Source of the DNA: a virus | Lineage: Duplodnaviria; Heunggongvirae; Uroviricota; Caudoviricetes | Strand: one strand, 5' to 3' | DNA length: 26,754 bases | Virus record (IMG/VR): IMGVR_UViG_3300035182_000695 | Location: 1 to 26,754 of that record | Part shown: piece by piece, positions 332-7,653 of the stretch | Position numbering within the stretch: position 1 is the first letter of the stretch | Layout of the letters: each line of letters begins with the position of its first letter | Position numbers and translations under genes: made by a program | Notes under the pieces: model-generated | Seen by the model: the letters and a program-made list of their open reading frames with translations, nothing else | Told to the model about the DNA's origin: nothing | The model's database searches: none

Positions 332-1594
332 ATGTTAAAGGCTTTCAAGTACAGACTATACCCAAACAAAGAACAGCAAATTGCTTTAGATAAGCATATT
401 GGTAGCGTTCGTTTTGTTTATAATTTAGCTTTAGAAACTAAAAAGGTGGCGTACAATAACGCTCGTGTAAATCTTTCGAGATACGATTTACAAGTTCAAT
501 TAAAAGACTTGAAAAAAGAATGTGAGTGGTTGAAAGAAGTAAATAGTCAGAGTTTACAAGTTGCATTAATGAACTTAGATGCTTCTTATTTGAGTTATTT
601 CAGAGGATTAAAAGACGGAAGTATTGATAAGAAAAAAAATAATTATGTTAATTCTAAATTATCAAAAGGATTGCCGATAGACAACAATAAACTTCAAAAC
701 ATAGGAAAGCCGAAATTCAAAAGTAAAAAAGACAGCGTTCAAAGTTTCAATTGTCCTCAGAATTTTTACATAATAGACGGTAAATTAGATATTCCTAAAT
801 TAAAAACTGGAATTAAAATAATCTTACACAGAAAATTAGTTGGAGAACAAAGAAACGTAACTATAAGCAGAACATCAACAGGGAAATATTTCGCATCCAT
901 ATTAGTTGAAGACGGATTCGTGGCGCCGAAATTAAAGAAAATAAAACCTGAAACATCAGTAGGATTAGACTTAGGTATTAAAACATTTGCTGTTTGTAGC
1001 GATGGAAAAGAAATAGAGTCGCCTAAATTTTTAAGAGAATCTTTAAAAAGAATAAAAATATTACAAAAAAGACAAGCGAAAAAAAATAAAGATAGTAATA
1101 ACAGTAAAAAAGCATTAAAAAAAATCGCATTAGCGCACGAAAAAGTTGCTAATCAAAGGAAAGATTTTCTACACAAAGAAAGTAATTTGATAACCAAAAA
1201 TTATGATACAATTTGTTTAGAAGATTTAGCAGTTTCAAACTTAGTGAAAAATCATTCATTAGCTTTATCAATAAGCGATTCGGGATGGAGTATTTTTACT
1301 CGATTTGTAAAATATAAAGCAGATTGGGGAGGTAAAAACTATATTGAAATTGATAGATTTTTTCCTAGCAGCAAGCTTCACGCAAAATGCGGTTACATAA
1401 ATAAAGACTTGGAATTAATTCAGCGAGAATGGACTTGTAAATGTGGTGAATTAGTAAACCGAGACTTAAATGCAGCAATAAATATTCGCAATTTTGCGTT
1501 AAAACAAACAGGAGTGGGACGCTCCAAAGTGCTTGTGGAGTTGCCGACAATGGTCGGGGCTATGAAACAAGAAGCACATAAGATTATTATCTAG
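332..1594 (+). CDS. tnpB: RNA-guided endonuclease TnpB (IS605 OrfB family), 420 aa
   Basis: N-terminal KAFKYRLYPNKEQ; RuvC motifs GLDLGIK, LEDL, RDLNAAINI; Zn ribbon HAKC...CKC. Confidence 0.96.
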   Translation: MLKAFKYRLYPNKEQQIALDKHIGSVRFVYNLALETKKVAYNNARVNLSRYDLQVQLKDLKKECEWLKEVNSQSLQVALMNLDASYLSYFRGLKDGSIDKKKNNYVNSKLSKGLPIDNNKLQNIGKPKFKSKKDSVQSFNCPQNFYIIDGKLDIPKLKTGIKIILHRKLVGEQRNVTISRTSTGKYFASILVEDGFVAPKLKKIKPETSVGLDLGIKTFAVCSDGKEIESPKFLRESLKRIKILQKRQAKKNKDSNNSKKALKKIALAHEKVANQRKDFLHKESNLITKNYDTICLEDLAVSNLVKNHSLALSISDSGWSIFTRFVKYKADWGGKNYIEIDRFFPSSKLHAKCGYINKDLELIQREWTCKCGELVNRDLNAAINIRNFALKQTGVGRSKVLVELPTMVGAMKQEAHKIII

Positions 1595-1604
1595 TGTAGT
1601 TCAC
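1511..1604 (+). ncRNA. TnpB omegaRNA (reRNA) scaffold / transposon right end, overlapping the tnpB 3' end
   Basis: Hairpins GGAGT/GCTCC (1511-1525), CCGAC-aatg-GTCGG (1544-1557) and a subterminal hairpin 1575-1596, ending in TTCAC 1600-1604; the true 5' start is unknown. Confidence 0.7.
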
Positions 1605-1620
1605 AATAATCCTTCAATCG

Positions 1621-1830
1621 ATGAATGACGAATCATTAATGCCATTTGGAAAATACAAAAACATTAGACTTGCAAATATCCCTGCGAGTTACTTCTTTTA
1701 TCTCGAACCTGGAATGAAAGAAAAAGCCCCTAATAAGCGCAGTTTGACTGAAAAACTTCTACTAGACTACATAAACGACAATCGAGATGTTCTAAATAAA
1801 CAGGTCAATGAGTCAAGAAGCGGTAATTAG
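1621..1830 (+). CDS. DUF3820-like small protein
   Basis: MPFGKYK...LANIPASYFFYL matches the MPFGKYKG/diP..Yl motif. Confidence 0.7.
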   Translation: MNDESLMPFGKYKNIRLANIPASYFFYLEPGMKEKAPNKRSLTEKLLLDYINDNRDVLNKQVNESRSGN

Positions 1831-1848
1831 GCGTTAACTTTAATATAC

Positions 1849-1958
1849 TTAACATCAGATTGTTAATAACTTTACAAACATTTTATTTGCAGATGTGTAT
1901 ATTCGTTGTATATTTGTGTAACAATTAAGTTAAACACTAGCAAAATCAAGACATTATG
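1849..1958 (+). promoter_or_regulatory. Promoter module P1 (operator - promoter - operator - leader)
   Basis: TTAACA-N6-TGTTAA 1849-1866; TTTG 1886-1889; N19; TATATTTG 1909-1916; TAAC-N6-GTTA 1919-1932; AAAATCAAGACA before ATG 1956. Confidence 0.85.
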
Positions 1959-2348
1959 AGTAATTTTCAAGCATCAGAATCAGGAGTTATCAAAGCAGGT
2001 GATATAGCATCATTCAAAGGATTTTGGGATGCGGAAGTTAAGACTGCTGATAAAGGAATCATTACAGTTATAGGAAACGATGGTGTGTTTATGGACGATT
2101 CTTTTCAAAAGAAAGAAGAATTCACTATCGAAGACTTAAAGCGTATTTTCAGAAAGTTTAATGTGCTTCGTCCAGAAAATACGCACGAATCGATTATAAA
2201 ATACTCAAAACTTTACGAATCAGACAGATTTCCTGTTTCTGTACATAGAATGATACTTAATGCGATAAAGCCTCACAGAAACGATTTAAAGCAGTTGCAC
2301 GATAAGTTTCTTGCATTAGTTGAAAACAAAATTGGTAAAATCTATTAA
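1956..2348 (+). CDS. hypothetical protein (first gene after P1)
   Basis: 130-aa ORF whose start matches the conserved leader. Confidence 0.75.
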   Translation: MSNFQASESGVIKAGDIASFKGFWDAEVKTADKGIITVIGNDGVFMDDSFQKKEEFTIEDLKRIFRKFNVLRPENTHESIIKYSKLYESDRFPVSVHRMILNAIKPHRNDLKQLHDKFLALVENKIGKIY

Positions 2349-2350
2349 TT

Positions 2351-2674
2351 ATGAAAAAGTACACTCAATTAGAAACGGAACAAAGAGAAGCTCAAGCGAG
2401 ATTCGATAAAGCAATCTATTTAACTTATGTTGAATATGGAAAATACAACCAGTATAAGCGTATTAATAAGGAGTTGTTTATTGAGATGTTAAATAACAAG
2501 GTTGATAAAAAAACAACTCACGAATTTGATAAAAAAAGAATTTATAGAATAGCTGACAGTAAGGAAATTTGGATTGATAAAAATAAAAATGTTTTAGGTG
2601 AGGTTTTCACGGAAGTTTGTAGGGACAATGAAGATATTGTTTTAGAATCATTTTGGATTAACGAAGGATATTAA
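2351..2674 (+). CDS. hypothetical protein
   Basis: 107-aa ORF, 2-nt gap to the previous gene. Confidence 0.7.
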   Translation: MKKYTQLETEQREAQARFDKAIYLTYVEYGKYNQYKRINKELFIEMLNNKVDKKTTHEFDKKRIYRIADSKEIWIDKNKNVLGEVFTEVCRDNEDIVLESFWINEGY

Positions 2675-2686
2675 AAACTACTCATA

Positions 2687-2893
2687 ATGTTTGATAGTAA
2701 GCAAGAATTAATAAAAAGGCATAAAGCTAAGCATCAAGAGGAGTTGCTTGAGATTTTCATTCTAATAGAAGAAAATACTATGCAAACAAAAGTACAGGCG
2801 CTTACTAGATACGCAAGGCTTTTTGGCATGACTGATAAAATAAAAGCGAATGAAGAAATGAAAAAAGCTTACTCTGAATTTAATACCAAATAA
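2687..2893 (+). CDS. hypothetical protein
   Basis: 68-aa ORF in the packed + strand array. Confidence 0.6.
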   Translation: MFDSKQELIKRHKAKHQEELLEIFILIEENTMQTKVQALTRYARLFGMTDKIKANEEMKKAYSEFNTK

Positions 2894-2904
2894 AAAAATA
2901 TAAA

Positions 2905-3234
2905 ATGAAATCATATTATTCTCTAATGTCAATGTTTGCACTTTCAATGATGAGTGCAGATAATTTTGGCAACACAACAAATAGGCGTTCTAATTTTATT
3001 TCTGATGAAGAATTAGAGCAAAAGAATAAGCCTAACTATAAATTCAATTTCTCTATTCCTAAAAGTACAAAGTTGTATCTGTTTGAAAGCAATGGAAACT
3101 TTGAAACTTTCACAGAGTTTGCAAGTCGTAATGAAATGCCAAATTATTGTGTGTTTCATTGTATTGCAATAAATGATAAGTCAGCATTAAATAAGTTTAA
3201 TAAATGGAAATTATCAAACAGTGCAGGATGCTAA
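2905..3234 (+). CDS. hypothetical protein
   Basis: 109-aa ORF with an A-rich leader. Confidence 0.65.
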   Translation: MKSYYSLMSMFALSMMSADNFGNTTNRRSNFISDEELEQKNKPNYKFNFSIPKSTKLYLFESNGNFETFTEFASRNEMPNYCVFHCIAINDKSALNKFNKWKLSNSAGC

Positions 3235-3241
3235 CACTTGC

Positions 3242-3319
3242 CACTAACGTTACGAAGCCTTGCTTAGTTTGACTCTTAGCGGTTATGTAATGCCAAATTG
3301 AGCAAGGGTTGGGTTAGTA
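3242..3319. repeat. attC-like imperfect palindrome 1
   Basis: ACTAAC 3243-3248 / GTTAGT 3313-3318; inner stem CCTTGCTTAGTTTG 3258-3271 pairs with CAAATTGAGCAAGG 3294-3307 (two G-T pairs). Confidence 0.65.
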
Positions 3320-3369
3320 ACAGTAGCCAAATTAAAATTTAAAAACAAATAACAATTAAAAATACAATT

Positions 3370-3612
3370 ATGAAAAATTCAAGTGTAACAATAAAAGGAT
3401 TAACAAGAATACAAGCAAATGCATTAGCTCTTTTGTGCGAGGATGAAGCTATCGGCAAATTGATTAATGAAAAAATGGATGAAATAAAATCCACAACAGA
3501 GGAAGGAGATGAGTTATATGATTTATGTAGTTCATTAGAGGACGAAATGGCTTCAATGGATTTTGACGACTCTGATGGTGACGTTAATCATGTTGCTGAT
3601 TTTGGCGCTTAA
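3370..3612 (+). CDS. highly acidic small protein inside a putative gene cassette
   Basis: 80 aa with 20 D/E and 6 K/R; lies between the two palindromes. Confidence 0.75.
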   Translation: MKNSSVTIKGLTRIQANALALLCEDEAIGKLINEKMDEIKSTTEEGDELYDLCSSLEDEMASMDFDDSDGDVNHVADFGA

Positions 3613-3657
3613 TAAACCTATATCAACACCCGAAGCATAAACATCAAAGGCTATTGG

Positions 3658-3712
3658 TGCTAACGGATTGCACCTAATAAATCGGCTTGCTGTTTATTAG
3701 GTGCTGTTACCT
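3658..3712. repeat. attC-like palindrome 2
   Basis: TAAC 3661-3664 / GTTA 3706-3709; perfect 12-bp stem GCACCTAATAAA 3670-3681 / TTTATTAGGTGC 3693-3704. Confidence 0.7.
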
Positions 3713-3772
3713 GCTGGCGGACTGAATGTTGCTATAAGACTTTAATATAAAAACAATTTAACAAATAAAAAT

Positions 3773-4153
3773 ATGACAATCAGATTAAATATTAAGAGAA
3801 TCGCCTTTGTCGGCTTAGTATTAATGCTATTCAGCTTTATGTTAGCTACAATATTCAAGTTCTGTCAATTATCTCAAGTGATACAACAACCTCAGCGTGA
3901 TGTTGCTATTACTATGTCAATTATTTTTATTGCTGCTGTTGGCTGCTTACTTTGTTTACTCGCAGTTGTTTTATCTTCTATCAATAGCGTTAAAGAGATT
4001 ATAGATGAGCAATATCAAGAACGAATGGATGAAAATCAAACAGCACTTGCGGGAGAAATTATATCGATGGTTAAAAATCATCAAGGCAGCGGAAACGCAT
4101 TATTTAAAATACTAACAGAATTTCACCTTACTAAAAAGAAAAACAATAACTAA
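3773..4153 (+). CDS. two-TM membrane protein
   Basis: Two hydrophobic stretches (IAFVGLVLMLFSFMLATIF; ITMSIIFIAAVGCLLCLLAVVL). Confidence 0.7.
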   Translation: MTIRLNIKRIAFVGLVLMLFSFMLATIFKFCQLSQVIQQPQRDVAITMSIIFIAAVGCLLCLLAVVLSSINSVKEIIDEQYQERMDENQTALAGEIISMVKNHQGSGNALFKILTEFHLTKKKNNN

Positions 4154-4175: not shown

Positions 4176-6302
4176 ATGAAAAAGTTCAACGCAACAATTC
4201 AAAAGCACTTCGACGAGATGTGCAAAACAGGCAAACTGTTCAGAGTAAAATTAACAGGACAAGAAATTTGGGACTTGTATCTCAAATCATTCGACAACGA
4301 CCCAATGTTCAGAGACCCCGAAAGCTCTACACATAACTGTAATCATTGCAAAAATTTCATTAGAAGATACGGAAACATAGTTTCTATCTCAGAAGACTTC
4401 AAAATTGTAACATTGTTTGATGTGCAAGCAGATGAAGAATTTGTTAGCGTTGCAGCCGCTTTATCTAAGGCAGTTAAATCATCTAAGGTGGCAGAAGTGT
4501 TCTTTGAAACATTTGATGAGCTTAATAAGCTTCCTTATGAGAGCTGTAATAAGAAAAACGCATTGTTTCAATTAGGTGTTGATAAAAACACTAAACGCTA
4601 TACTAAAGAAGAAGCCGAGAAGTTTGGTGTTGTTAAAGCTAATCAATTGGTTGAGTTTCATCACTTGCACTTATCATTACATAAAGACTTTGTAGATACA
4701 ACTGGCAATTCTGTTGAATCAATTATGGGTAAATACAGAGATGACAAAAATGTTTTCGAGCGTGCTATGGAAACAATCTCTTTAGACACTTTACACTTAG
4801 TTCGAGATTTAATCAATCAAGGTTCTTTACTAGACGGACAAACTCACCTGTATAAAGTTGAGCAAATGATTCCTTTGAAAAAAGAATACGATGAATTGAG
4901 TAAAGCGCAAAGAAGTAATTGGTGTTGGATTAAGTCTTACAAATTTCAGTTAGCTAAATTCAGAAACGAATTAATAGGCGTTTTATGTACTGAGCTTTCA
5001 GAAGGCAAAGAAATTAATGAAGCGTGTCAAGCTTGGAACAAACGAGTTGACCCTATCAATTATATGAAAACAACCGCTCCAATAACTAAAAAGCAAATCG
5101 CAGAAGCTAAAGAGTTTGTTGAGCAAAATGGCTATACTGAGTCCTTTGATAGAAGATTCGCTACCATCGAAGACATTAAAGCGTCTGAGATATTACACAT
5201 CAACTCAGGAAAAGGCGGACTTGAAGAGGTTTCTATTTTTGATAGCGTGAAAGCAACATCTTCAACAAGACACAAAAGAAATGAGTTCGACGGCATTGAA
5301 GAAGTGAGCATAGAGAAATTTATGGAAACTATTCTGCCTACTTGCTCTTCTGTTGAAGTGCTTTTAAGAAGCGCACACGAAAGTAATTTAGCGTCTTTAA
5401 CAACAGCTAACAATCCTGATAGCAAGAATATCTTTAAATGGAGTAACAATTACTCTTGGACGTTTAATGGCGATTTAGCCGGCAAATCTCAAATCAAAGA
5501 TGCTGTAAAGTCAAGAGGTGGAAATGTAGAAGGTGTTATGCGTATTAGTTTATCTTTTCCTGACACTACTGATGATTATGATTTACACTTAATCGAGCCT
5601 AACAGAAATCAAATATCTTATAGTAATTTGAGAGTTAAGCATTCATCTTCGGGTATGTTGGATTTAGATGCTCAAGGACGAGATGGAAATCAACCTGCTG
5701 AAAAACGAGTAGAGAACATTATCTACACAGACAAAGCTAGTATGCCAAAAGGTGCTTATCAAGTATATGTAAACAACTATTCTGAAAGAGGATTACATAC
5801 CGCATTTATGCTAGAAATTGAAATTGATAATGAAATTACTGTTTTGAAATTGAAACCAAAAAAATCAATCAACAAGATTAATGCTTGTAAAATTGAATTT
5901 GACGGAAACAATTTTGAATTAACGCCTTGCGAAGGAATGGAAGTTACTGATTCAAAATCTATCTCTAAAGAAATTTACGGATTAGAAACAAATCAATTTC
6001 ATAAAGTAAATTTAGTTTGCTTGTCACCTAATCATTGGGGAGATAACAATGTAGGCAATAAGCATTACTTCTTTATGCTAGACAAATGTAAATCTCCTGT
6101 AAGCATTAGAAGCTTTCATAACGAGAACTTAATGCCTGAGTTAGCTGCTCACAGAAAAGTAATGGAGGTACTCGCTAGTTCAAACTCTATTACATCAACA
6201 GACAAACAACTTTCGGGACTCGGATTTAATGCGACGGTCAGAGAAGAGTTGATTGTTAGGCTAACAGGTACGCATAAAAGAACATTGAAAATTAAATTCT
6301 AA
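4176..6302 (+). CDS. large conserved phage protein with an N-terminal CxxC and a YfaP/DUF2135-like domain
   Basis: 708 aa; HNCNHCKNFI; RISLSF...DYDLHLIEP...LDLDA...VENI...YQVYVNNY. Confidence 0.65.
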   Translation: MKKFNATIQKHFDEMCKTGKLFRVKLTGQEIWDLYLKSFDNDPMFRDPESSTHNCNHCKNFIRRYGNIVSISEDFKIVTLFDVQADEEFVSVAAALSKAVKSSKVAEVFFETFDELNKLPYESCNKKNALFQLGVDKNTKRYTKEEAEKFGVVKANQLVEFHHLHLSLHKDFVDTTGNSVESIMGKYRDDKNVFERAMETISLDTLHLVRDLINQGSLLDGQTHLYKVEQMIPLKKEYDELSKAQRSNWCWIKSYKFQLAKFRNELIGVLCTELSEGKEINEACQAWNKRVDPINYMKTTAPITKKQIAEAKEFVEQNGYTESFDRRFATIEDIKASEILHINSGKGGLEEVSIFDSVKATSSTRHKRNEFDGIEEVSIEKFMETILPTCSSVEVLLRSAHESNLASLTTANNPDSKNIFKWSNNYSWTFNGDLAGKSQIKDAVKSRGGNVEGVMRISLSFPDTTDDYDLHLIEPNRNQISYSNLRVKHSSSGMLDLDAQGRDGNQPAEKRVENIIYTDKASMPKGAYQVYVNNYSERGLHTAFMLEIEIDNEITVLKLKPKKSINKINACKIEFDGNNFELTPCEGMEVTDSKSISKEIYGLETNQFHKVNLVCLSPNHWGDNNVGNKHYFFMLDKCKSPVSIRSFHNENLMPELAAHRKVMEVLASSNSITSTDKQLSGLGFNATVREELIVRLTGTHKRTLKIKF

Positions 6303-6330
6303 ATATAAATCAAATAAAAAAACAGAAAAA

Positions 6331-6720
6331 ATGGAAATGTACAAAGAAGCAACAAGACTTGGACTAAGAGTTCAAACAACAAGAGGTCCTTTATCAATTG
6401 AACAATTGTGGGACTTAAAATTAACTGAATTAGATGCTTTAGCAGTATCTCTTCAAGAGGCTCACGAAAAATCAAAAAGTAAATCGTTTTTGGACACTAA
6501 GACTGTTAAAGACAAAGGAATTAAATTACAATTCGATATTGTATTAGACATTCTTAATACTAAAAACGAAGAGCAAAAAGCCGCCAAAGAGTCTGCGAGA
6601 ATCAAAGCGCACAACAACAGAATTGACGAGCTTATCGCTGAGAAAAAAGATAAAGTTATGGAAGCTAAATCTATCAAAGACCTTGAGAAGATGAGAATTC
6701 CAGTAGAGTCAGAAGATTAA
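6331..6720 (+). CDS. small coiled-coil partner of the 708-aa protein
   Basis: 129 aa; TRGPLSIEQLWDL motif followed by a helical K/E-rich region. Confidence 0.7.
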   Translation: MEMYKEATRLGLRVQTTRGPLSIEQLWDLKLTELDALAVSLQEAHEKSKSKSFLDTKTVKDKGIKLQFDIVLDILNTKNEEQKAAKESARIKAHNNRIDELIAEKKDKVMEAKSIKDLEKMRIPVESED

Positions 6721-6725
6721 TAAAC

Positions 6726-6760
6726 AATAGTGGGAAGGTGTTATGCTTTCCCACTTATTT
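6726..6760 (+). terminator. possible intrinsic terminator hairpin
   Basis: AGTGGGAA 6729-6736 / TTCCCACT 6748-6755, followed by TATTT (weak U tract). Confidence 0.55.
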
Positions 6761-6774
6761 AAAAAAAACACAAA

Positions 6775-6996
6775 ATGAAAAAATCGGAAATAAAGTTCAG
6801 TCTGTCTTTACTTAAAATGAACAGAAAGTACCATAAATCAGGAATGATTAACTCTAATATTGTTGAAAAAAACAGAAAAAATTTAAGCAAAAGCACAATT
6901 AATATGTTAGAGAAAAAATTTAAAAACCACTCATCGTATTATAATGATTTATCACTTGCGATAAATGCACTTGAAAAACAACTTAAATCAAAGTAG
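6775..6996 (+). CDS. hypothetical basic protein
   Basis: 73-aa ORF. Confidence 0.6.
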   Translation: MKKSEIKFSLSLLKMNRKYHKSGMINSNIVEKNRKNLSKSTINMLEKKFKNHSSYYNDLSLAINALEKQLKSK

Positions 6997-6998
6997 CT

Positions 6999-7232
6999 AT
7001 GAAGAATAAATTATTACTATTGACAATAGCATCTTTACTTACAGTTGCTTGTAATGAATCGAAAAACACAACAATACAATCTACCAACGTACAGATTAAA
7101 GGAATCGAAATAGAAACTTACATTTTTGATAGTTGCGAATATGTAGGAAGCATTATAGAAAACGCTCACAACCAAGATTGGATGACGCATAAAGGAAATT
7201 GTAGATTTTGTAAATATCGTAACAGTAAATAA
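6999..7232 (+). CDS. putative lipoprotein, Cys-rich C terminus
   Basis: Signal MKNKLLLLTIASLLTVAC; DSCEY...THKGNCRFC. Confidence 0.7.
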   Translation: MKNKLLLLTIASLLTVACNESKNTTIQSTNVQIKGIEIETYIFDSCEYVGSIIENAHNQDWMTHKGNCRFCKYRNSK

Positions 7233-7233
7233 A

Positions 7234-7653
7234 ATGAACATTGTAGCCGAATTAGAACAAACAACTAAAGAATTGTACAAATTAAACGCTTATAAAGAAG
7301 GTTTGTATAAAAAAATTGAAAACAATTTAAAATCTTATTTAATAGGTAAATACAAAGGTACTGTAATTAAAAGAGATAATTTGCAATATGTTTTTTTTAA
7401 TCTAAGGGTTTATGCTGAGTTTCATCATGATAATATCAGTCCTGCAAATTTAAAAGCTACTTTATATTTTACGATAATTTCAAAAATAACTTCTGTACAA
7501 AAAAAAGAATTAGATGAAGCTATACGAGATTTTGAGTCAAACAATGGAATCTGGTTAGGCGGTCGTAGAAAAATAGATTTATGTCTGAGCATTGAATACA
7601 CATTTACAATACAAGAAGCAATGGAAAATAATATTGATTTACAAATTAAATAA
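7234..7653 (+). CDS. hypothetical protein
   Basis: 139-aa ORF. Confidence 0.7.
   Translation: MNIVAELEQTTKELYKLNAYKEGLYKKIENNLKSYLIGKYKGTVIKRDNLQYVFFNLRVYAEFHHDNISPANLKATLYFTIISKITSVQKKELDEAIRDFESNNGIWLGGRRKIDLCLSIEYTFTIQEAMENNIDLQIK

Follow-up and report, generated by a model that had tools for sequence, protein, structure and literature searches.

A short array of attC-like hairpins in a phage genome that probably belongs to an integron-like gene-cassette system of Bacteroidota

We describe here two attC-like hairpins that bracket a small gene in a phage genome record, and argue that the stretch around them (positions 3235-4153) probably represents a gene-cassette system that resembles integrons and is specific to Bacteroidota, here in the form of a short array with two sites, on which a tyrosine recombinase would act at TAAC. 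The sequence analysed, referred to below as the window, comprises 26,754 nt and opens an IMG/VR phage record of 146,216 bp (linear, GC 32%, CheckV completeness 74%). An earlier note, made from the letters of the window, had read the same place as an integron-like cassette; that interpretation turns out to be largely right, with the polarity and the boundary of the cassette corrected. The 80-codon gene between the two sites is probably a mobile cassette taken from unrelated phages. The features on which the argument draws are collected in Table 1.

Table 1. Parts of the two-site array, in window coordinates.
Feature	Position	Strand	Remarks
Remnant 3′ closing arm of the preceding cassette, CACTTGCCAC	3235-3244	+	directly after the stop of a 109-aa ORF
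Site 1, attC-like hairpin	3245-3316	+	TAAC 3245-3248, 5′-side unpaired stretch, variable loop, GTTA 3313-3316
Cassette 5′ end, "tail A"	3317-3369	+	12-nt closing arm GTAACAGTAGCC (3317-3328), then A-rich leader to ATG
Cargo ORF, 80 aa	3370-3612	+	acidic, pI 4.05; 20 D+E against 6 K+R
Remnant C-terminus PISTPEA* (7 codons and stop) of an earlier cargo	3617-3640	+	within the constant cassette 3′ end
Cassette 3′ closing arm, "up A", GGCTATTGGTGC	3649-3660	+	pairs with 3317-3328
Site 2, attC-like hairpin, 49-nt class	3661-3709	+	TAACG, 4-nt 5′ bulge, 11-nt loop, TGTTA
Next cassette 5′ end, "tail B", CCTGCTGGCGG... and leader to ATG	3710-3772	+	sequence matches
Cargo behind tail B, 126-aa predicted membrane protein	3773-4153	+	ORF

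All genes of the window lie on the plus strand and are tightly packed, and the two gaps that hold the sites (3235-3369 and 3613-3772) exceed those separating neighbouring genes. Among the ORFs between 332 and 8897 that were compared with 80 related IMG/VR loci, relatives were found solely for those at 4176-6302, 6331-6720 and 6999-7232 (the last in 2 loci); since none of the ORFs from 332 to 4153 has a relative there, we regard this stretch as a variable head. The 708-aa protein encoded at 4176 belongs to PHROG 1735 and has a precomputed match to PF26675 (DUF8224), and its gene is kept as a pair with the next, 129-aa gene (4176-6720) in 60 of the 80 loci, jumbo-sized contigs included, at 34-65% identity; this pair marks the start of the conserved backbone. 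Four contigs carry the window locus and are mutually 100% identical, and there is therefore no polymorphism at the locus itself. In the GenBank phage collection neither intergenic module was matched and no near relative of the window was present, and ARAGORN predicted no tRNA. The 80-aa protein has no Pfam or PHROG match, a search for relatives in viral contigs was empty, an Atlas look-up gave no usable lead, and its AlphaFold model is poor (pLDDT 58.6); two homologues of about 60% identity (P0002 and P0003) lie in other phage contigs that lack the flanking sites. The variable head also encodes a 420-aa TnpB (332-1594) with HTH_OrfB_IS605, OrfB_IS605 and Cas12f1-like TNB domains; no TnpA occurs anywhere in the genome record. 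A 69-aa ORF (1621-1830) with a weak match to PF12843 begins 26 nt after TnpB, a gap that leaves little space for a downstream guide RNA.

Direct reading and folding confirm the two intergenic TAAC...GTTA hairpins of the earlier note. Site 1 has a stem of 14 bp that includes two G-T pairs (arms 3258-3271 and 3294-3307), site 2 a perfect stem of 12 bp (arms 3670-3681 and 3693-3704, between TAAC at 3661-3664 and GTTA at 3706-3709), and their inner stems are, as had been remarked, unrelated. Folded in isolation, the hairpins reach z = -3.0 (site 1) and -3.2 (site 2), with 0 and 1 of 200 shuffles folding equally well, while the whole intergenic folds are modestly better than shuffles (z of -1.6 and -1.8). 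Among the 316 TAAC..GTTA spans on the plus strand of the 146,216-bp genome, the two hairpins rank first and third by energy per base; the span ranked between them is not a member of the family described below.

Both sites are recovered by a covariance model, R1, which was built on 15 sites from other genomes with the window sequence left out. Its two hits in the window are site 2, scoring 61.3 bits (E 2e-14), and site 1, scoring 24.1 bits (E 0.0015); it also finds sites in all array loci, always on a single strand. Site 1, with its weak score, carries GGTTA where the family has TGTTA. Both sites have an AAC...GTT core in imperfect inverted repeats around a variable stem-loop. Site 1 reads CACTAAC / GTTAGTA and site 2 TGCTAAC / GTTACCT, and we agree with the earlier reading that neither fits RYYYAAC / GTTRRRY, a pattern that most members of the family fail too. 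The suggestion that the hairpins might relate to the Rfam Flavo-1 motif is not supported: at E-values up to 1, Rfam yields no match, Flavo-1 included, at the window sites or in four array loci.

The family to which R1 assigns these sites has a consensus of TAACG, unpaired K-T-T-T, a stem that often starts with GCRGCTA, a loop whose length ranges from 6 to about 90 nt, and ...TAGGTGC-TGTTA, and its members fall into size classes near 49, 70-80 and 124-128 nt. In the complete phages G003, G004 and G005 (39-47 kb), 8-13 sites each are clustered among small early genes on one strand. A degenerate site pattern picks out 70 stretches of GTDB species genomes, nearly all of Bacteroidota, with up to 11 sites per 8 kb, and complete Fluviicola chromosomes are among the genomes that bear them. 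The stems covary: in the 15 aligned sites, 10 of the 12 inner pairs have changed on both sides, and 88.9% of cells are paired as against 73.2% in shuffles, with slid controls at 30-54%; none of 500 shuffles attains the covariation and pairing that were observed. The fold is also strand-specific, being more stable on the plus (sense) strand in 52 of 55 sites, by a mean of 6.75 kcal/mol (p 3e-10) and with 186 G-U pairs against 75. Columns 18/60 of A4 (for example in the G004 site L103, 18987-19057) hold an inner-stem non-pair in 10 of the 15 sites, mostly G opposite G, a conserved irregularity reminiscent of attC extrahelical bases. The earlier proposal of a Bacteroidota-type ssDNA-hairpin cassette system is supported in so far as the sites belong to a Bacteroidota-wide, strand-specific family of attC-like hairpins and cassettes; single-stranded DNA would be the presumed substrate.

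Several members of the family carry features of their own. In sites of 120-130 nt (L096 minus strand 4643-4761, oriented 2788-2906; L088 3678-3804; L089 145-272) the "loop" takes in the start codon of the following ORF together with its A-rich leader, such that the 3′ arm, GTTA and closing arm are coding; their product in L096 is a lipoprotein signal peptide. A tmRNA gene (L172 6133-6539, minus strand, 79.8 bits) is surrounded by the 11 sites of an array in a contig of a Flavobacterium MAG, and this array may belong to an element integrated at ssrA. Recurrent cargo includes DNA methyltransferases (N6_N4_Mtase and others) and a Mom-like protein (L092 oriented 6742-7470; L112 29248-30848 and 37305-38816), which suggests anti-restriction traffic. 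A site in Polaribacter phage P12002L (L112 30008-30056; R1 39.4 bits) is the published predicted attC "P12002L_attC1", identified through a primer in supplementary Table S3 of PMC9892861. In that study, Qi et al. (2023) reported CALINs (clusters of attC sites without an integrase) in virulent phages, where they have been described only as scattered predicted attC sites; P12002L_attC1, predicted with HattCI, was the sole site without a verified junction with IntI1 (PMC9892861). None of the papers searched describes the TAACG...TGTTA hairpin family as such.

The ends of the cassette are complementary, as the earlier note had claimed for 3313-3328 and 3649-3664. Direct reading gives the same 13 Watson-Crick pairs in 16, and 15 of 16 positions pair on the plus strand if G-T is allowed. 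The 12-nt arms 3317-3328 and 3649-3660 form nine Watson-Crick pairs and two G-T pairs with one mismatch, and have the G-T that the family shows at position 7; the equivalent 16-mers of L097 and L098 form 15 Watson-Crick pairs and one G-T. Across the family, 149 adjacent site pairs from phages and bacteria were examined for pairing between the 12 nt that follow GTTA and the 12 nt that precede the next TAAC: at least 10 of the 12 positions pair in 51 of them (34%), whereas non-cognate pairs reach this level in 1.4% of cases. Of 70 good end helices, 58 have G-T at position 7, and G-T or T-G occurs 103 times as against 12 times for A-C or C-A. At the left border of the window array, homology with L088 and L092 begins at 3237 (94.5% over 3237-3309); in L088 the counterpart of the CACTTGCCAC arm has its partner in the tail behind the preceding site, and the window holds no upstream partner for this arm. 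Tail B has no complement anywhere in the genome. Because neither a closing arm nor a further site follows the 126-aa gene, we consider that the array ends behind it and passes into the backbone at the 708-aa gene.

The ends of the window cassettes are shared with other phages and their contents are not. BLASTN aligns just the non-coding stretches 3237-3377 and 3610-3779 to other phages, at 77-97% identity, and never the ORFs, and the phages concerned have almost no proteins in common with the window phage. The stem of hairpin 1, with varying loops, recurs in seven IMG/VR contigs and one ENA contig (L087), in differing contexts, and in the seven the GTTA is followed either by tail A, as in the window, or by tail B, which is exactly what the window has after hairpin 2. 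Hairpin 2 precedes tail A in L097 and L098, and all four combinations of hairpin type and tail are found. Tail A is kept after sites of either type in L087, L091, L094, L097 and L098, and tail B is matched at 84-96% in L088, L089, L090, L092, L094 and L095, in both cases before unrelated ORFs; the ten cargo ORFs behind the two tails are mutually unrelated, no BLASTP pair reaching E 0.1. The constant 3′ piece (3610-3664) likewise recurs behind unrelated ORFs in L094 and L096-L099. The PISTPEA* stretch within it is the genuine C-terminus of cargo ORFs in L096, L097 and L098, that of L097 ending ...THWMRLPNPPISTTEA; elsewhere, a DUF551 match exists among the ORFs of G004. Near-identical copies of site 2 occur in L097, L098, L088 and G004. 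The exact stem pattern of hairpin 2 was absent from viral contigs, where relatives bear one or two stem changes. In other contigs of source-type and soil metagenomes the match to hairpin 2 covers the stretch from about 3659 to precisely 3709 and is bordered by different arms, and metagenome assemblies break within both hairpins.

The ENA contig L087 shares 3244-3474 with the window at 91% identity, between quite different genes, with the stem of hairpin 1 intact and its loop and spacers altered. Within its positions 1-948, hairpin 1 and tail A are followed by 35 codons (100% identical) from the start of the 80-aa ORF and then by unrelated sequence; to either side lie, as judged by eye, the end of a C5 DNA methyltransferase gene and a SAM-dependent methyltransferase gene. 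This contig is a mosaic with its breakpoint inside the cargo ORF. The two sites and their 80-aa and 126-aa cargo were most likely acquired from unrelated array-bearing phages. If the cassette reading is confirmed, the acidic 80-aa protein and the 126-aa membrane protein are recently imported accessory genes.

Direct evidence from near-identical genomes on the limits of the mobile unit comes from one pair of phage contigs only, L088 and L092, whose flanks are 99.8-100% identical around two differences. At one, 428 nt are present in L092 that L088 lacks, a unit made up of hairpin, GTTA, arm, leader, ORF, arm and TAAC, and its insertion point is immediately 3′ of a TAAC; in the empty site of L088, TAAC runs straight into backbone with no hairpin. 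At the other, one unit has been swapped for another between TAACG and the next TAAC. These two events, from one genome pair, therefore point to a TAAC-bounded unit in which the hairpin leads the ORF, and by this measure the unit in the window looks TAAC-bounded at 3249-3664 (416 nt) rather than G/TT-bounded. The earlier note had proposed an excisable cassette of about 393 bp at 3314-3706; its cassette frame with pairing ends stands and its boundary does not, and excision, like present mobility of the window copy, is presumed. It had also looked to relatives missing exactly 3314-3706. Relatives of this kind were found in L088, L089, L090 and L092, which join hairpin 1 directly to the sequence behind hairpin 2 and correspond formally to the window minus 3317-3709. 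A G/TT-bounded insertion of 3317-3709 would suit the comparison of the window with L089 and L090, to which we give less weight because those genomes are unrelated to the window phage.

A single crossover at TAAC explains neither the reassortment of hairpins and tails nor the replacement of cargo inside constant ends, and more than one kind of exchange must therefore operate. An ENA contig provides a third variant downstream of the L092 methyltransferase. No joints were seen in the contigs of four sequencing runs, assembled contigs being a form of data in which rare excised molecules are invisible. Indels among the closely related contigs L050-L062 were rejected as cassette events: they do not lie at TAAC/GTTA sites and reflect other processes, and the looser hairpin scan probably over-calls sites in these loci.

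Profile searches agree with the earlier statement that the window holds no integrase, and extend it to the whole genome record, in which PF00589 is absent (the record being 74% complete); the complete array phages G004 and G005 lack a recombinase as well. The co-occurring tyrosine recombinase that the earlier note had hoped for is missing from these three records, and present in all four of the related array loci examined (G003 and three homologous loci), where a 279-aa Xer/IntI-like recombinase is encoded on the array strand 0.4-2.6 kb downstream of the sites. This protein scores 188.7 bits against NF040815 and 186 bits against TIGR02249, which is below the 265-bit cut-off of the latter and was matched in two stretches. 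These results do not amount to the classical arrangement of an IntI with its extra domain, an attI and a Pc beside the array. Given that the enzyme is missing from the record, it would be supplied by the host or by a co-infecting element, or the mechanism is a different one.

The alternative that survives best, which we nevertheless consider unlikely, makes the hairpins and arms RNA elements of a polycistronic early transcript, with roles in processing, stabilising or presenting messages for translation, and their shuffling a by-product of homologous or short-homology recombination of the kind associated with PeSLs. The processed mRNA would carry a 5′ hairpin, with its 3′ end paired to the 5′ region. 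Such a role would account equally well for G-U-rich folding that is confined to the transcribed strand, for the co-orientation of every site with the genes, for non-coding conservation that spans the A-rich leader up to the ATG, and for the long-loop sites that hold the leader and start codon of the next ORF. Homologous exchange, for its part, would fit the reassortment of hairpins and tails at both feet and the gene content of G004, where there is an ERF-type single-strand annealing protein but a site-specific recombinase is lacking, and it has a precedent in the PeSLs (PMC2839356, PMC4122927). The insertion junctions of L088 and L092, however, share just the 4 bp of TAAC, too little for homologous exchange, and dense arrays are also found in bacterial chromosomes. 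One form of the idea is excluded, in that the hairpins are not promoter-terminator cassettes: sigma-70-type signals are at the level of shuffles, no T-run terminator occurs at the hairpins, and reading of the two leaders revealed no Bacteroidota-type -7 box (TAnnTTTG). RNA and recombination roles could coexist in the same sites, by analogy with attC sites.

Very improbable, in our view, is a second alternative, which takes the unit for an IS200/IS605-type element that is non-autonomous, depends on an HUH (Y1) transposase to move it in single-stranded form, and is tied to the TnpB 1.6 kb upstream. Insertion exactly 3′ of a tetranucleotide, a subterminal hairpin and strict strand specificity are what such an element would display, and the TnpB itself combines OrfB_IS605 with a Cas12f1-like TNB domain. 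Yet PF01797, the Y1 transposase profile, is absent from this record and from five array-phage records, four of these five being estimated at 97% completeness or more (G000-G005 in all), and the TnpB region has no sequence in common with the sites. Each unit, moreover, has one hairpin in place of a similar left-end and right-end pair, the stems of neighbouring units are unrelated, and head-to-tail arrays with shared boundaries are not how insertion sequences behave. Least credible of all is the notion that the hairpins are unrelated chance or terminator structures and the 16-mer complementarity a coincidence, for which the modest z-scores of the whole intergenic folds and the presence of just two sites in the genome might be cited, but which is refuted by the covariation, R1 and cognate-arm statistics, R1 matching both sites and the same sequences recurring in many genomes.

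We therefore return to an integron-like cassette system as the probable explanation and suggest how it might work. Each site consists of constant feet, namely TAACG with about four unpaired bases on one side and TGTTA on the other, around a variable stem-loop that folds on the sense strand, and a cassette runs from hairpin, GTTA, 12-nt arm, A-rich leader and ORF to the complementary 12-nt arm and TAAC. In a free circle, arm-TAAC would be joined to the hairpin, giving an outer helix of 15-16 bp with its G-T pair, a one-sided bulge and the inner stem; outer helix and inner stem could then serve as the two binding arms for a tyrosine-recombinase dimer. The recombinase would cut out, insert and swap cassettes at the TAAC that lies 5′ of the folded hairpin. 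Cleavage of the bottom strand in classical integrons occurs at an equivalent position, AA/C, and the geometry proposed here would be that of the integron bottom-strand reaction, save that the ORF is in sense on the folding strand. Counting against this scheme are the lack of a recombinase in this record, G004 and G005, the uniformity of the four contigs that carry the locus, the reassortment of hairpins and tails, and the weak score of site 1. In the context of an array, moreover, the outer helix is just 4-5 bp long unless the arms pair across the ORF; the sites fall outside RYYYAAC/GTTRRRY, and the P12002L member of the family failed with IntI1.

Surveys with IntegronFinder 2.0 have reported almost no integrons in Bacteroidetes (10.1101/2022.02.28.482270). 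It is quite possible, and we put it forward tentatively, that gene capture in Bacteroidota and their phages relies on a common system apart from classical integrons, in which single genes, led by a sense-strand hairpin and closed by cassette-specific arms with an invariant G-T, move as circles through short Xer-like recombinases acting at TAAC. Exchange would be free among chromosomes, temperate phages and large virulent ones, and the window would then represent a delivery into a 146-kb phage whose recovered record has no recombinase. What the data suggest is a cassette system of large extent, coherent and with a structure distinct from others, in Bacteroidota chromosomes and many phages, with methyltransferases and small orphan genes as cargo that crosses between unrelated phages. 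If confirmed, this system would explain how accessory, likely anti-defence, genes are traded among these phages, would offer an experimentally tractable new pair of hairpin and recombinase, and would provide a means to delimit and mine mobile genes in Bacteroidota viromes.

Features of the array can be found in several known systems. With IS200/IS605 peel-and-paste elements and their miniature derivatives it shares strand specificity, guidance by a hairpin, and insertion that takes place 3′ of a tetranucleotide without duplicating the target, and it differs in lacking a Y1 transposase, in its single hairpin per unit and in its tandem arrays. In CTX-type phages, a single-stranded DNA hairpin folded from one strand is the substrate of the host XerCD, an Xer-type tyrosine recombinase; there, a whole filamentous phage integrates at dif, and gene-cassette arrays are not formed.

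The nearest phage analogue is provided by the PeSLs of T4-type phages, conserved stem-loop intergenic modules that flank small accessory ORFs in hyperplastic regions and mark points of gene swapping (PMC2839356, PMC4122927); minicircles have been proposed for them as well (PMC2839356, PMC4122927). A PeSL, however, combines a sigma-70 promoter with a terminator and acts through homologous recombination, whereas the sites described here have neither promoter nor T-run and show a junction of 4 bp, their end pairing is cassette-specific, and they are also found in bacterial chromosomes.

A further comparison is with integrons. The complementary ends are 15-16 bp long with a nearly invariant G-T, as opposed to 7 bp in integrons, and the unpaired spacer is confined to one side. 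With respect to the folding strand the ORF is in sense, and it is led by its hairpin, whereas a classical site follows its ORF and the boundary is the G/TT of R′. The recombinase is short (279 aa), falls below the integron-integrase cut-off, and is lacking in this phage as well as in two of the complete array phages. Shared with attC sites and CALINs are imperfect hairpins with an AAC...GTT core, in which structure is kept above sequence and terminal stem-loops measure between 44 and about 130 nt; strand-specific folding; complementarity between the first bases of a cassette and the far foot of the site belonging to it; co-oriented arrays of mostly single, promoterless ORFs, with unrelated cargo behind near-identical ends; and an Xer/IntI-like tyrosine recombinase beside some arrays, with one member of the family having been called attC by HattCI (PMC9892861). 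Sedentary chromosomal integrons, with their homogeneous attC repeats, are among the closest known systems.
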